A DNA stretch of 6,498 nt, taken from the IMG/VR virus record IMGVR_UViG_2579778894_000010; one strand, 5' to 3'. The translations under genes were made by a program, and so were the position numbers. The notes under the pieces were generated by a model that searched no databases, was not told where the DNA came from, and saw only the letters and a list, made by a program, of their open reading frames with translations. Numbering within the stretch: the stretch's first letter is position 1; every line of letters starts with the position of its first letter. This document shows positions 100 through 5,782 of this stretch, one piece after another. This DNA is from a virus (lineage: Duplodnaviria > Heunggongvirae > Uroviricota > Caudoviricetes).

Positions 100-489
100 T
101 CAGGCGGCTGCACCCGCCGTTTTCTCGTACTTACTGATAGTGATCTCGACCTTCCCTTTCGGGATAACCGGTCCCCACTCCACCAGCATTCTTTTCACCT
201 GACTGTCGTCTTCCCACACACCCGCATGGGTCAGGGCGTCAAACAGCGCCTTGTTATAGTTGTCCAGATCGCGGATCCGGTTATCCGGAGGAAACAACAC
301 GATCTCCACTGAAGCAGGTGCCGACGTTGGTTTCGGCAGACGACGTAACTGCTCAACTATTGCTGCGCACGCCGCGCTCTGGAATTTGCGCCCCGCTGCG
401 CTTATCAGACTCTTACCAGCAAACGCCCCTTTGTTGGGGTGTCGCCAGTACGTGTTCACGCTGGGCGGGAAAGGCAAGATCAGCTTCAT
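100..489 (-). CDS. rusA: RusA-family Holliday junction resolvase
   Basis: 129-aa ORF with the RusA-like pattern LPFPPSVNTYWRH ... PPDNRIRDLDNYNKALFDALTHAGVWEDDSQV (acidic catalytic cluster). Its ATG (489..487) overlaps the upstream gene's TGA (486-488) as ATGA. Confidence 0.88.
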   Translation of the reverse strand: MKLILPFPPSVNTYWRHPNKGAFAGKSLISAAGRKFQSAACAAIVEQLRRLPKPTSAPASVEIVLFPPDNRIRDLDNYNKALFDALTHAGVWEDDSQVKRMLVEWGPVIPKGKVEITISKYEKTAGAAA

Positions 490-812
490 ACTTTCAGGCC
501 CCTCTCATGTAACCAGTGGGCTGCACGCAGCCTGGCGTTTTCCTCACCGGCAAGCAGTGCGCGGATAATCCCGACCGCCTCGCTGTCGTCGTCCTTCACC
601 GCGGTATGAAGAGTTATCCCCCGGGCCACGCCACGCTTTATCGTGATGACGCCTTTTTTCTCCAGTGCGCGAAGATGCTCCACCGCTGCATTCACCGAAC
701 GGTATCCCAGCATGGTTGCCACCTCCTGATTGGTTGGCGGAAAGCCACGTTCTTGCTGGTAAGAAATCAGCATATCCAGCACCTGCTGCTGGCATTGAGT
801 TAACGTCGTCAT
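486..812 (-). CDS. LexA N-terminal (winged-HTH) DNA-binding domain protein lacking the S24 peptidase domain
   Basis: 108 aa. Residues about 5-70 (QQQVLDMLISYQQERGFPPTNQEVATMLGYRSVNAAVEHLRALEKKGVI) closely resemble the LexA N-domain including the recognition-helix region SxNAAxEHLxAL. No Ser/Lys autoprotease domain; short C-terminal helical tail instead. ATGA overlap with the Dam stop at 809-812. Confidence 0.8.
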   Translation of the reverse strand: MTTLTQCQQQVLDMLISYQQERGFPPTNQEVATMLGYRSVNAAVEHLRALEKKGVITIKRGVARGITLHTAVKDDDSEAVGIIRALLAGEENARLRAAHWLHERGLKV

Positions 813-1462
813 GCCGCCATCTCCCTGACCAGTTTTTCCGCCTGCTGGCGAACCTGCGCCAGAAAGGCCTCACCACATGCCTCAAGTTCATCGCGCCCGA
901 TGTAGCTGATTGCCGGTCCCTTCCGGGTCTTGTCGAAAACAGCAATAGCACCAGCGAAGAAAGCGCCTGTCGGCACCTGCTTCTCGTCCTTCGGGATAAA
1001 CCAGGCTGGCAGTTCAAAACCAATACGCCCGCGAATAAAAGCAATATGGTCTGCATCTTCCGGCCACCAAACTTCGCTGGTGGCAGCTTTGATCAGGAAA
1101 ACATAGCGCCCGCCTTTATCACGCATGGCACTGGCATGCTTCATGATGTAACGCATGCCGGTGATGTATTGCCCCTCATGCTGACTGGCGCGGCTGTACG
1201 GGGGATTACCAAAGGCAGCACCTTTAAGCTCCGCAAGACGTTCTGACCAGTCATGCGCCAGCGCGTTGTCTTCCGCAGTGTAATACGCGGCGCATTTGGC
1301 GTTATCACCATCAGTAAACAGATCCAGAACAAACGGGCCAAACAGGGTGTTAATTCCCCAGAAAATGTTGTCCGGCGTGCGCCACTGATCGCCCACTTCC
1401 TTCAGTTCATGGGCTGGTTTGTTCCGCAGCTCCACCAGCGCCTGGCAATATTTATTACTCAT
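809..1462 (-). CDS. phage Dam-type DNA N6-adenine methyltransferase
   Basis: Catalytic motif NPPY in FGNPPYS; overall resemblance to phage orphan N6-adenine MTases. Start chosen at ATG 1462..1460 (MSNKYCQ...) because it overlaps the upstream stop as TAATG; the track ORF extends to 1495 with an alternative upstream start. Confidence 0.85.
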   Translation of the reverse strand: MSNKYCQALVELRNKPAHELKEVGDQWRTPDNIFWGINTLFGPFVLDLFTDGDNAKCAAYYTAEDNALAHDWSERLAELKGAAFGNPPYSRASQHEGQYITGMRYIMKHASAMRDKGGRYVFLIKAATSEVWWPEDADHIAFIRGRIGFELPAWFIPKDEKQVPTGAFFAGAIAVFDKTRKGPAISYIGRDELEACGEAFLAQVRQQAEKLVREMAA

Positions 1463-2903: not shown

Positions 2904-3242
2904 CTATTTCCCTGAATTTACGACGAAACTGTTCGAGCGGGCTGAAGCACTCATGCTCATAGCCTTCGCGGAGGTAGATAACACGTTGTGTTTCCGGCTC
3001 CCAACGAATGACTCTGACGGGCACTCCGTAGTGATCTTTGAACCAGCGGTTAACTTGTCGCAAAGGACTGTCTCCTTCTGCCGGTTGAAATCACCCACAG
3101 CCCACTCTGCAAAGCTGTGGGTTACAATTTCCCTGTCACCTGGTACATTTACTGCATAGCAATACTCCACCTTCGCTTTTCCACCCGGTACAGGAAGCGC
3201 AATCAGTTGCGAGCGACGGTAGTGTGTTGTTAAACTGTTCAT
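2904..3242 (-). CDS. hypothetical protein (112 aa)
   Basis: ATG 3242..3240 overlaps the upstream TGA as ATGA; ends 10 nt before the initiator start. No recognisable motif; C-terminal third is low complexity. Contains a perfect 8-bp hairpin at 3094-3121. Confidence 0.5.
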
Positions 3243-3802
3243 GCGTTAGTTTCTCCACAGTCACGACACGCCACGGCGCCCGGAGCTGCACACTCGCGGG
3301 CGTCATTACTTTCTGAAATGCAAAAAATTTTGTAGACCAGTGCTGCATGCTCCTGCAGCTTCGAAATTGAGAGGTACAGCTCGTCGTTAATTGCTGTCTT
3401 CTCATGCGGTTCCACTACACCGTCTTCAATTGCTGAACGAATCTGTTTTGAATAACTGCCGATCTGTTCAATGACTTCCAGCAGGCGCTGGTTAATATCG
3501 GCGTTGTCCACATCCTCGACGTCAGGAAGAGACACAAAGACGCCATTTGCAGACTGCGCCACTGCGTCAGCAATGAAGTGAGTTCCACCAGCACGTTGCA
3601 AAATCATTGCCCATCCCAGCGGGAAAATCTGATCGCCATCGGCACGAAGGCGGTTAAATAATGCGTTCTCTGTTACATCCAGCCAGTCAGCTGCTTCAGC
3701 GTAACCACCCGGCAACTTTGCGATAGTTTTTCTGACAGCTTTCACGTACCACTCAGGCTGTTTTTCTACTTTCCAGTGATGCTTACCCACGGTTAGCCTC
3801 AT
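3239..3802 (-). CDS. CII-like/YdaT-like phage regulatory protein (tentative)
   Basis: Occupies the cII position directly after cro. Central segment ([41 protein letters not shown]) looks like a CII-type HTH; acidic C-terminal part. Start uncertain: ATG 3802 has a weak SD, in-frame GTG 3790 has GAGG at a 6-nt spacer, and the track ORF starts at 3904 overlapping cro. Confidence 0.55.
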
Positions 3803-3827
3803 CGTTCTGTGGTTTCTGTTAATCGAT

Positions 3828-4028
3828 TTATCCATTAGATTTTTCATAAAGCTCAGGTTTAAATGGCAACCGTCCGCAAGTTCTATATGCAGCTTCTGCT
3901 GCACGTCCTTTTGGAATTAACTGGCCCGGACGGTTTCGCCACTGATAAACGGCTTCAGTTGTTATGCCGAAAAAAGCAGCAACTTTCTCAATACTGCCGA
4001 AGTAGCTTTCGATATCGTCAGTTGTCAT
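3828..4028 (-). CDS. cro: Cro-type repressor (P22 Cro-like)
   Basis: 66 aa, divergent from the cI-like gene. HTH segment FGSIEKVAAFFGITTEAVYQWRN resembles P22 Cro as I recall it. Strong SD GGAGGG 5-10 nt upstream of ATG 4028. Confidence 0.8.
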   Translation of the reverse strand: MTTDDIESYFGSIEKVAAFFGITTEAVYQWRNRPGQLIPKGRAAEAAYRTCGRLPFKPELYEKSNG

Positions 4029-4125
4029 ACGCCCTCCAAACTAAGTTTTGTTAGATGCTAATTACAAATCTATCTTTGGTCAATAAAAACTAAGATTACT
4101 TAGCGATTAAAGAAATGGTGCTCCT
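4029..4125. promoter_or_regulatory. divergent immunity promoter/operator region (oR-like; pR toward cro, pRM toward cI)
   Basis: Two 14-bp dyad sites of form CTAA-N6-TTAG: 4041-4054 (CTAAGTTTTGTTAG) and 4090-4103 (CTAAGATTACTTAG). Minus-strand candidate pR: -35 TTGACC, 17-nt spacer, -10 TAGCAT, placed so the 4041-4054 site overlaps the transcript start. Confidence 0.6.
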
Positions 4126-4752
4126 ATGGAAACGGTTGGTCAGCGTATAAAAGCTCTGAGAAGAGTTACCAGAACGTCCCAGAAAGAATTGGGTAAATTT
4201 TGTGGAGTAAGCGACGTTGCTGTGGGGTACTGGGAGAAAGACATCAATACCCCTGGCGGGGAGGCACTTTCGAAATTAGCGAAGTTCTTCAATACGTCAA
4301 TAGATTACATTCTTTACGGTGCTGAGTTTGAAGGCAAACTCGTCACAAACATGCGCAGAGTTCCTGTAATATCGTGGGTTCAGGCTGGGCAGTTTACTGA
4401 GTGCAGGGCAGCAGAAGTGTTTAGTGAAGTGGACAAGTGGGTAGATACATCATTAAAGGTTGGTGATAACTCATTTGCATTAGAGGTTAAAGGTGACTCC
4501 ATGACTAACCCTAATGGCCTCCCAACAATACCAGAAGGCGCAACAGTGATTGTAGATCCAGATGCAGAACCTCGTCATGGAAAAATAGTCATCGCTCGAC
4601 TTGATGGAACAAACGAAGCTACAGTAAAAAAATTAGTCATCGATGGCCCTCAAAAGTTTTTAGTGCCATTAAATCCTCGGTATCCCAACATCCCTATCAA
4701 TGGTAATTGCCTTATCATTGGTGTAGTCAAAGGAGTTCAATACGAACTCTAA
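4126..4752 (+). CDS. cI: cI/C2-type prophage repressor (XRE HTH plus S24 LexA-like autopeptidase domain)
   Basis: 208 aa. N-terminal HTH (QKELGKFCGVSDVAVGYWEK); C-terminal S24 signatures: catalytic Ser in GDSM, Lys in EATVKKLV, and a cleavage-site-like AG; overall resembles P22 C2. Confidence 0.9.
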   Translation: METVGQRIKALRRVTRTSQKELGKFCGVSDVAVGYWEKDINTPGGEALSKLAKFFNTSIDYILYGAEFEGKLVTNMRRVPVISWVQAGQFTECRAAEVFSEVDKWVDTSLKVGDNSFALEVKGDSMTNPNGLPTIPEGATVIVDPDAEPRHGKIVIARLDGTNEATVKKLVIDGPQKFLVPLNPRYPNIPINGNCLIIGVVKGVQYEL

Positions 4753-4979: not shown

Positions 4980-5471
4980 CTACAGATTGCCGTTAAGTTT
5001 TCTGGACAACTCCTCAATGGATGGAGGCGATACGTAATCCGGATTTTTATTCATCAGAAACTTATTTTCACAGTGGAGGCACCTGCTTTTATGAAAAAGC
5101 TCATCTTCGCTAACCGGGAATGGTTGAAGTATCGATACTATCTTTTGTCCAAAACATTTTGGGCAAAGATGCATGGTTATGCTGCCACCGTTCACGATTA
5201 CCTCCTTCGAGTATACAAAAGTACCCGACTCAAGTTGGTTAAGGATATAGCCTTCCGTCTGAGCCTCAAAGTTTTCGAATTCTGCAATTTTAGCTTTGAG
5301 AGAAGCATTTATTTCTTGATAAGAGCCCACCAGTTCAACGAGAGACACGCATTCGCGCTGAATAGACGCAAGCTTTGAGTTCAGCTCACCAATAGCCGCA
5401 TTTACTTCAGCTTGAGTTTTTGCCTCGTTCATTAGTTTTGCAATCTGGGCTGTTTCACGAATAGCCGTCAT
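4980..5471 (-). CDS. orphan coiled-coil / C4 zinc-ribbon protein (about 163 aa); candidate moron
   Basis: Predicted start ATG 5471..5469 (MTAIRETAQIAKLMNEAK...); the track ORF extends to 5759 but the extra N-terminal 96 codons look like non-coding read-through. N-terminal half is heptad-like and Ala/Glu/Lys-rich; C-terminal half has CPKC-x21-CLHC. By eye it is AT-rich and convergent with cI. Alternative GTG start at 5495. Confidence 0.6.
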   Translation of the reverse strand: MTAIRETAQIAKLMNEAKTQAEVNAAIGELNSKLASIQRECVSLVELVGSYQEINASLKAKIAEFENFEAQTEGYILNQLESGTFVYSKEVIVNGGSITMHLCPKCFGQKIVSILQPFPVSEDELFHKSRCLHCENKFLMNKNPDYVSPPSIEELSRKLNGNL

Positions 5472-5509
5472 TGCTGCCGTTAATTCAGCGATCACATTGA
5501 ATACTCTTA

Positions 5510-5555
5510 TTGTTGTTGGGGATATCCAGATTAACCGAATCCTTGTTGTTGGGGA
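5510..5555. repeat. two exact 13-bp direct repeats (TTGTTGTTGGGGA) spaced 33 bp, upstream of the orphan gene
   Basis: Copies at 5510-5522 and 5543-5555, lying 40-85 bp upstream of the predicted start at 5471. Confidence 0.6.
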
Positions 5556-5782
5556 ATAACCAGGTCCACCTCGCCTGATGTGGCTAAAAGCAGGCACATA
5601 ACAGCTAAGTATTTTCAACCAGAGAGAATCCTTAGCGTTGTGGTGAATGCGGCTCAGCGCACGCGGGTTAAGGTTGAGGCTGACAGTCGACCTTCTGTGG
5701 ATACCCACCCGCCTGGTGTGCAACCTTCGCCAGGCACCGGGAGGCACCCGGCACCACAACTTTATGCTGTGTGTAGTCCTGG

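Follow-up and report, generated by a model that had tools for sequence, protein, structure and literature searches.

A 6,498-nucleotide stretch of DNA from a virus of the Caudoviricetes (IMG/VR record IMGVR_UViG_2579778894_000010; "the window" hereafter means this whole stretch) encodes, at 486..812 on its minus strand, a small protein that consists of a LexA DNA-binding head joined to a novel helical tail. This observation is real and statistically secure. For convenience we call the product of this gene and its family, PHROG 362, LexD. An original prediction, made from the DNA letters alone, had described it as a LexA DNA-binding domain without the autoprotease domain and proposed that it might act as an uncleavable mimic of LexA. 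Here we establish the fold of LexD, its homology to LexA, its lack of a peptidase domain, the selection that acts on it, its gene context, and the wiring of a sister lineage into the SOS response; this wiring, by an SOS box and the gene dinI, is new here. The parts of the LexD gene and its two junctions are as follows.

486..812, minus strand: LexD gene, from the ATG start to the stop codon inclusive; a LexA-type DNA-binding protein of 108 amino acids without a peptidase domain.
606..812, minus strand: LexD residues 1-69, a winged helix-turn-helix homologous to LexA 1-69 (gapless phmmer and BLASTP alignments, AlphaFold2, Foldseek).
663..698, minus strand: LexD recognition helix SVNAAVEHLRAL, residues 39-50 (alignment to E. 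coli LexA).
591..605, minus strand: flexible linker, residues 70-74, at the position of the LexA hinge (predicted local distance difference test, pLDDT, below 50 at 71-74; alignment).
489..590, minus strand: family-specific tail, residues 75-108 (AlphaFold2 helices 75-87 and 93-103; conservation; ratio of nonsynonymous to synonymous polymorphism, pN/pS).
809..812, minus strand: ATGA overlap of the Dam stop codon and the LexD start codon (sequence, open reading frame coordinates).
486..489, minus strand: ATGA overlap of the LexD stop codon and the RusA start codon (sequence; the 4-nt overlap recurs in close relatives).

The homology of the head to LexA is extensive. Pfam aligned residues 1-65 with the entire LexA_DNA_bind model (PF01726, positions 1-65 of 65) at E=2.6e-19, scoring 69.2 bits against a gathering cut-off of 23.7. 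The best PDB sequence match was the N-terminal domain of E. coli LexA (1lea, E=6e-16), gapless through residue 70, and BLASTP against E. coli LexA found 39 identities in 90 positions (E=2e-21). Together with the list of open reading frames, these searches bear out the predicted reading frame and its LexA-like recognition helix. The AlphaFold2 model of LexD (pLDDT 78.6) has the LexA helix pattern followed by a two-stranded wing, with helices at residues 6-22, 28-35 and 40-52 and strands at 56-58 and 66-68. Foldseek superposed it on LexA N-terminal domains (1lea, 3jso) with a root-mean-square deviation (rmsd) of 0.9-1.6 Å over 66-72 residues at 48-52% identity; structure prediction, which had been suggested as a check, therefore revealed no different fold. 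The disordered linker is followed directly by an acidic run, DDD, at residues 74-76, and upstream of the LexD ATG, at a distance of 8 nt, lies a Shine-Dalgarno sequence, GGGAGA.

As predicted, LexD has no S24 Ser/Lys domain. Pfam found no match to Peptidase_S24 (PF00717) in LexD, whereas the CI repressor encoded in the same window does match (E=1.8e-27). LexD ends at residue 108 and lacks the domain that carries the Ser119-Lys156 dyad of LexA (COG1974, peptidase family S24). An exhaustive profile search recovered homologues of 104-165 amino acids that cover LexD over its full length, and all of them lack S24. Because neither LexD nor any member of its family has this domain, RecA-stimulated self-cleavage is impossible, in agreement with the original prediction; the pair of residues opposite the LexA scissile bond is also not conserved. 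Lacking both S24 and a conserved scissile bond, LexD is not a functional member of the LexA family. Nor does it belong to the Rrf2 family, a name found in some NCBI records: the match to PF02082 reaches 16.8 bits (E=0.0079), below the cut-off of 30.

LexD is a selected, conserved family of Enterobacteriaceae prophages and not a remnant of LexA. PHROG 362, annotated as "transcriptional repressor", covers residues 1-108 with profile positions 1-106 of 106 (E=2.6e-59), and nearly all homologues are 104-112 amino acids long, the NCBI name being "LexA family transcriptional regulator" (about 106 amino acids). Of 5426 complete E. coli genomes, 2233 (41%) carry lexD at 90% identity or more, in up to four copies per genome, and the gene also occurs in more than 587 IMG/VR contigs. 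Across 57 LexD alleles pN/pS is 0.05 (0.03 in the DNA-binding domain, 0.07 in the tail), compared with 0.04 for Dam and 0.10 for RusA. Divergent members, which cluster names place in Cronobacter, Enterobacter, Kosakonia, Cedecea, Klebsiella and Salmonella, are only 40-50% identical and in the exhaustive profile search still align through the tail. Two tail residues, A97 and L101, never vary, and positions 82/83, 86/87 and 100 are conserved as hydrophobic; by itself the tail matches phrog_362 positions 71-106 (E=1.1e-13), and a search of Pfam and PHROGs gave nothing significant outside that family. Homology of the tail to a known domain was rejected; the Foldseek matches that extend past the LexA domain (MntR, MepR, BlaI and others) have poor rmsd. 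We propose that the tail is most likely a dimerisation module.

Proteins with two tandem LexA_DNA_bind domains and no peptidase domain occur in other bacteria (P0127, P0128, P0135, P0139), in which the LexA head may be naturally "dimeric" within a single chain. Viral contigs scanned for P0137 gave no match.

A tie between this family and the SOS response comes from a sister lineage. We divided the loci into those of the window type (class I, n=94) and those of the sister lineage (class II, n=109). Class II LexD proteins, from Klebsiella, Cedecea/Enterobacter and Salmonella, are 118-165 amino acids long and have an N-terminal extension in addition to the shared tail. Their genes stand in the order SOS box, dinI (optional), phrog_1813, LexD, phrog_1212, RusA (optional), DUF968, Q, in operons located as follows.

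L112, 513-3106: class II operon.
L009, 4560-7413: class II operon.
L110, 3561-6195: class II operon.
L114-L227: further class II operons.

A canonical SOS box of 17-29 bits lies within 1.5 kb upstream of LexD in 100 of the 109 class II loci and in none of the 94 of class I, and the same 1.5-kb stretch contains dinI in 97 class II loci and again in no class I locus; because the class II loci are interrelated, these counts are not independent events. At least six lineages, with LexD proteins that share less than 65% identity, have this arrangement. The box sequences, for example TACTGTTTATTTATACAGTA, agree with the published consensus taCTGtatatatataCAGta. In L110 the box follows a predicted terminator and in L009 it abuts a predicted promoter, TTGCAA-17-AATAAT; in the other class II loci a promoter is recognisable by eye only. 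The presence of an SOS box, often with dinI, upstream of class II LexD implies that the family is wired into the SOS circuit. Judged from these sequences, class II LexD is itself SOS-induced, usually alongside the RecA-filament binder DinI, a phage-borne modulator of the SOS response (PMC7556043). DinI is linked to LexD in that most class II loci encode the two behind one SOS box, but the two proteins are unrelated: DinI acts on RecA, not on DNA, and the window does not encode it. The wiring of class II strengthens the link between LexD and the SOS circuit.

The class II operon also places Q, besides LexD, downstream of a LexA-controlled promoter. A separate feature of these loci is an inverted repeat, TGCGCCA-N12-13-TGGCGCA, over the Shine-Dalgarno sequence and ATG of LexD (L009 4983-5008, L119 near 2101, L138 near 3983); it may form an RNA hairpin controlling LexD translation. 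A search for a second conserved palindrome near the class II SOS boxes that might be an operator for LexD found none, this repeat over the ribosome-binding site and start codon being the sole conserved one.

The window itself is the immunity-to-nin segment of a lambdoid prophage. Its DNA is 100% identical to Escherichia phage PhiR29_1 and about 97% identical to Shigella phage SfII, mEp460 and several Stx2-converting phages. The minus strand encodes, in order, Cro, a CII/CP76-like protein, a YmfM-like protein, an O-like replication protein, a PerC/YfdN-like protein, Dam, LexD, RusA and the first 80 nt of a KilA-N gene. The features that bear on LexD are these.

100..489, minus strand: RusA Holliday-junction resolvase (Pfam PF05866, E=6.6e-15).
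809..1462, minus strand: phage Dam methyltransferase (Pfam PF05869, E=2.6e-44).
4055..4083, minus strand: promoter-like site upstream of cro, likely a pR-type promoter (consensus scan).
4126..4752, plus strand: CI-type repressor with HTH_3 and Peptidase_S24 domains (Pfam PF00717, E=1.8e-27; PF01381).

A consensus scan of the minus strand found no promoter-like site between the one upstream of cro and LexD, and no terminator-like site from cro to RusA. With no such sites intervening, LexD would appear to belong to the delayed-early genes of the pR operon and to be released on cleavage of the S24-type CI.

The original prediction had placed LexD between Dam and RusA. Both 4-nt overlaps are real, but the two neighbors differ in constancy: RusA accompanies LexD in 84 of 85 close relatives, following it with the identical 4-nt overlap, whereas Dam is present in 61 and missing from 24. 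In those 24, LexD is directly preceded by the PerC-like gene, and the junction sequence is unchanged (…VSVRELRGG-V-MTTLTQ…; compare L045 7507-8327). That the PerC-like gene joins LexD at the same junction implies that Dam is an insertable cassette, optional and precisely bounded, upstream of LexD. The eight divergent class I loci examined (L003, L007, L008, L012, L113, L141, L142, L144) likewise have RusA after LexD without exception, while the upstream neighbor in divergent members may be Dam, a C5 methyltransferase, a PerC-like gene or a replication gene. Almost always, DUF968 and the Q antiterminator are encoded downstream. The constant partners of LexD in the window lineage are RusA, DUF968 and Q.

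Elsewhere in the window, 2904-3242 encodes a homologue of YmfM of the e14 prophage (phrog_1170) and 3239-3904 a homologue of YmfL (the CII/CP76-like protein); the title of a bioRxiv paper describes ymfM as an SOS-inducible filamentation gene. The O-like replication gene, at 1953-2894, contains a repetitive acidic Ser/Pro/Lys stretch (SDSDPSKSDASKSDPSKFDASKS) whose DNA probably represents origin iterons. It is followed by the PerC-like gene, with no P-like, DnaC-like or helicase gene after it. An open reading frame of 259 amino acids (4980..5759, minus strand) matches phrog_1244 over residues 94-244 only, and long family-less open reading frames on both strands overlap it between about 5480 and 5950, making the gene content there ambiguous. 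An Rfam scan of the window gave no match.

What might LexD do? On sequence grounds, the proposal that it is an uncleavable LexA mimic is plausible. The explanation that we favor, and to which we would give somewhat less than an even chance, is that LexD is a RecA-insensitive dimeric binder of LexA-type operators. According to this model, LexD would be made from the early-right operon once repression by CI is lifted, with CI (4126..4752) acting as the RecA-sensitive switch that releases its expression. Residues 1-69 would bind double-stranded DNA in the manner of LexA, the recognition helix lying in the major groove and the wing on the backbone. The acidic linker and the two-helix hairpin would replace the LexA domain responsible for dimerisation and self-cleavage, the hairpin most likely pairing two subunits. 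The result would be a minimal dimeric repressor that is proof against RecA and that lacks the C-terminus by which the cleaved LexA fragment is targeted to ClpXP. Its most likely targets would be LexA-type operators with CTGT-like half-sites, namely host SOS promoters and the LexA-controlled genes of co-resident lambdoid prophages, which it would re-repress as host LexA is destroyed.

In its fullest form, this model would make LexD a mini-LexA, resistant to both RecA and ClpXP, that after induction re-represses the SOS regulon and the LexA-controlled genes of rival prophages, ending the host damage response on the phage's terms and arbitrating between co-resident prophages; class II LexD together with DinI would then form a self-limiting, SOS-induced anti-SOS module. 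We regard this extension as doubtful. The rival genes concerned might be antirepressors, dinI, methyltransferases and the boxes internal to cI, a list that we put forward with similar reserve.

Several observations are consistent with LexD reading a LexA-type operator. According to passages of PMC3091678 and PMC13416735 that cite the LexA-DNA crystal structure, five helix-3 residues of LexA contact DNA: S39, N41, A42, E44 and E45. The window LexD keeps four of these (S39, N41, A42 and E45), E44 being replaced by Val. The residues that are invariant throughout the family (L4, E30, S39, L50, K53, R64, G65 and I66) are all those of E. coli LexA, N41 and G54 are nearly invariant, and several independent lineages have the recognition helix SPNAAAEHLKAL, in which 11 of 12 positions are as in LexA. 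The free N-terminal domain of LexA retains some binding to SOS boxes and some repression, and the cell removes it with ClpXP (PMC10584840); LexA N-terminal domains touch each other on the operator, and attaching any dimeriser to the LexA DNA-binding domain yields a functional repressor specific for the operator (PMC7102963). Indeed, the engineered proteins LEVI and LexRO resemble LexD in joining the LexA DNA-binding domain through a short linker to a small dimerisation module, and their operator binding depends on dimerisation (PMC7102963); they differ in being synthetic and in using LOV domains; the tail of LexD, by contrast, is a natural hairpin of 34 residues that probably dimerises. At the positions of the acidic LexA residues E44 and E71, LexD has V and A. 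Since the LexA charge changes E45K and E71K raise DNA binding in vivo, loss of the acidic charges at 44 and 71 may, by analogy, compensate for a weaker LexD dimer.

The closest structural counterpart of LexD is the N-terminal domain of E. coli LexA (residues 1-84, the fragment left after cleavage), with which it shares the winged-helix fold, the scaffold, the wing, S39/N41/A42/E45 and 48-52% identity, without gaps, over residues 1-70. LexD differs from it in being the product of its own gene and not a cleavage fragment; in having a conserved two-helix tail where the LexA fragment has an exposed C-terminus that targets it to ClpXP; in lacking E44, P40, R28 and E71; and in being encoded in a prophage early operon, whereas lexA occupies an autoregulated host locus.

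Other data weigh against the binding of SOS boxes by LexD. E44 of LexA is never kept across the family, and P40 and R28 are also changed. Residues 42-46 vary from member to member (NAAVEH, NTITGH, NAATDM, NGAFEH, NAVLLH and NTVFIH, with NTIAGH in place of NTITGH in a close Citrobacter relative). Every LexD member with a named source comes from Enterobacteriaceae, and these hosts presumably share essentially one LexA; the variation of these reading residues therefore implies that the family as a whole is no uniform SOS-box mimic. In addition, the Klebsiella and Salmonella class II proteins with the most divergent heads are still encoded behind canonical boxes, so the boxes are explained by host LexA alone. 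The monomer model of LexD has a predicted template modeling score (pTM) of just 0.53. A position weight matrix derived from 20 E. coli SOS boxes gave no match of 13 bits or more in the window or in PhiR29_1. PhiR29_1 contains one exact CTGT-N8-ACAG, within the tape-measure gene, where 0.74 are expected; in the window and the phage alike, exact and one-mismatch sites are at chance level. No half-site spacing of CTGT and ACAG is convincingly enriched in PhiR29_1: spacings of 0-20 nt were rejected as evidence because the excesses are marginal in relation to mononucleotide shuffles and to the many comparisons, these being ACAG-N14-CTGT (5 against 0.7 expected, inside genes) and CTGT-N19-ACAG (4 against 0.8). 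Overall, the proposal of an uncleavable mimic is partly supported, by the LexA fold and homology, the missing S24 domain and the SOS wiring of the sister lineage; it is weakened by the window phage having no SOS box, the loss of E44 and the variable reading residues.

Relatives of the window phage do contain strong SOS boxes. A perfect box (TACTGTATATAAAAACAGTA or TACTGTTTTTACATACAGTA, 26-27 bits) lies inside SfII-type cI, in the linker between the helix-turn-helix and S24 domains (L001 11949-11968, which is SfII; L032 3546; L010 3103). In about 30 related phages, a box of 20-22 bits (TACTGTAAAAATAAACAGTG) overlaps the initial codons of an N6/N4 DNA methyltransferase gene situated shortly after Q (L029 12086-12105; L110 6739-6758). 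One relative has a 22-bit box between RusA and a variant KilA-N gene (L072 8765-8784), and this suggests a LexA-controlled, antirepressor-like gene directly after the LexD-RusA pair. From these boxes we conclude that targets for cross-talk among co-resident prophages exist.

A contrasting explanation is that LexD is a phage-specific regulator, a captured LexA domain that has shifted in specificity towards a phage operator and that activates or represses a phage promoter, for example in the timing of Q or late genes. The precedent, and the closest characterised one for LexD, is gp6 of GIL01, a truncated LexA homologue of 66 amino acids from a Bacillus tectivirus that activates the late promoter P3 (PMC6182141). 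Although gp6 and the LexA domain of its host share 44% identity, gp6 recognises a different palindrome, GaCACAnnTGTGaC. Its own promoter is repressed by LexA, a wiring shared by class II LexD. Like LexD, gp6 is phage-encoded, is essentially a LexA DNA-binding domain and has no peptidase domain. That the reading residues of helix 3 differ among LexD lineages, as phage immunity specificities do, that LexD lies upstream of DUF968 and Q, and that the window phage has no SOS box would all fit this explanation. However, no conserved candidate phage operator was found, several lineages have a recognition helix nearly identical to that of LexA, and the window subfamily retains four of the five contact residues. 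The analogy with gp6 is also purely functional: BLASTP gave no alignment of the two at E<=100, and this undetectable similarity implies independent captures from unrelated hosts. Moreover, gp6 has no C-terminal helical module, its operator and activator role are experimentally shown while LexD is known from sequence and a model, and GIL01 is a tectivirus without CI, whereas the LexD phage is a lambdoid prophage with a cleavable one. We consider this explanation possible but on balance unlikely. In the literature, our search found LexD only in gene catalogues, such as a pfam01726 "pham" in 15 Stx phages, and no functional study.

It is less probable still, and in our view distinctly improbable, that LexD is an accessory or architectural DNA-binding partner in recombination or replication, acting with RusA on branched or replicating phage DNA and not on transcription. 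The translational coupling of LexD to RusA, nearly constant among close relatives, would be expected of such a partner, as would the position of RusA after LexD in each of the divergent class I loci, whichever gene lies upstream. There is also a parallel in lambda, whose nin region encodes NinH, a homodimeric mimic of the host DNA-binding protein Fis (PMC7166090). NinH, like LexD, is a small nin-region protein that copies the DNA-binding part of a global host protein, and it adjoins the Rap resolvase as LexD adjoins RusA; the parallel is positional and conceptual. Fold and host protein are different, and dimerisation, DNA bending and sequence preference are demonstrated properties of NinH alone. 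Against this explanation, most class II loci (the Klebsiella type; 90 loci, for example L112) have LexD without RusA, for which reason the notion that LexD always needs RusA was rejected, and the conservation of the base-contacting S39 and N41 is as in a sequence-specific reader. RusA is presumably widespread without LexD, as in DLP12 of K-12 and in phage 82. We give hardly any credence to the idea that LexD is a decaying, functionless lexA fragment or a pseudo-substrate decoy. It draws on the HMMER and BLASTP alignments to LexA, which run through residue 90 and place LLAGE opposite VAAGE, so that Ala88-Gly89 of LexD aligns with the cleavage site of LexA, Ala84-Gly85. But the low pN/pS, the frequency of lexD in E. 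coli genomes and the conservation of the tail in members only 40-50% identical all speak against decay, and the Ala-Gly pair gives way to AN, VG, TR, ER, DD or AC in other members. Cleavage-site mimicry was accordingly rejected: the pair is not conserved and LexD has no catalytic domain to cut it.

Finally, the SOS response controls prophage induction, mutagenesis, persistence and the release of Shiga toxin, and LexD is carried by prophages in about two-fifths of sequenced E. coli genomes, including Stx2-converting phages and phages that convert Shigella serotype. If LexD is indeed a RecA-resistant look-alike of LexA, it would represent an unrecognised layer of control in this response. In induced cells it could cut short or remodel the SOS response. 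It could also keep LexA-controlled antirepressors of competing prophages silent and confound experiments or drug strategies that assume LexA to be the sole reader of SOS boxes. Even if its operator has diverged, LexD would be a second, independently evolved case of a phage reusing the host LexA DNA-binding domain as a regulator, and two independent captures would mean that phages take over this domain repeatedly and that the tectivirus case is not a singular event.

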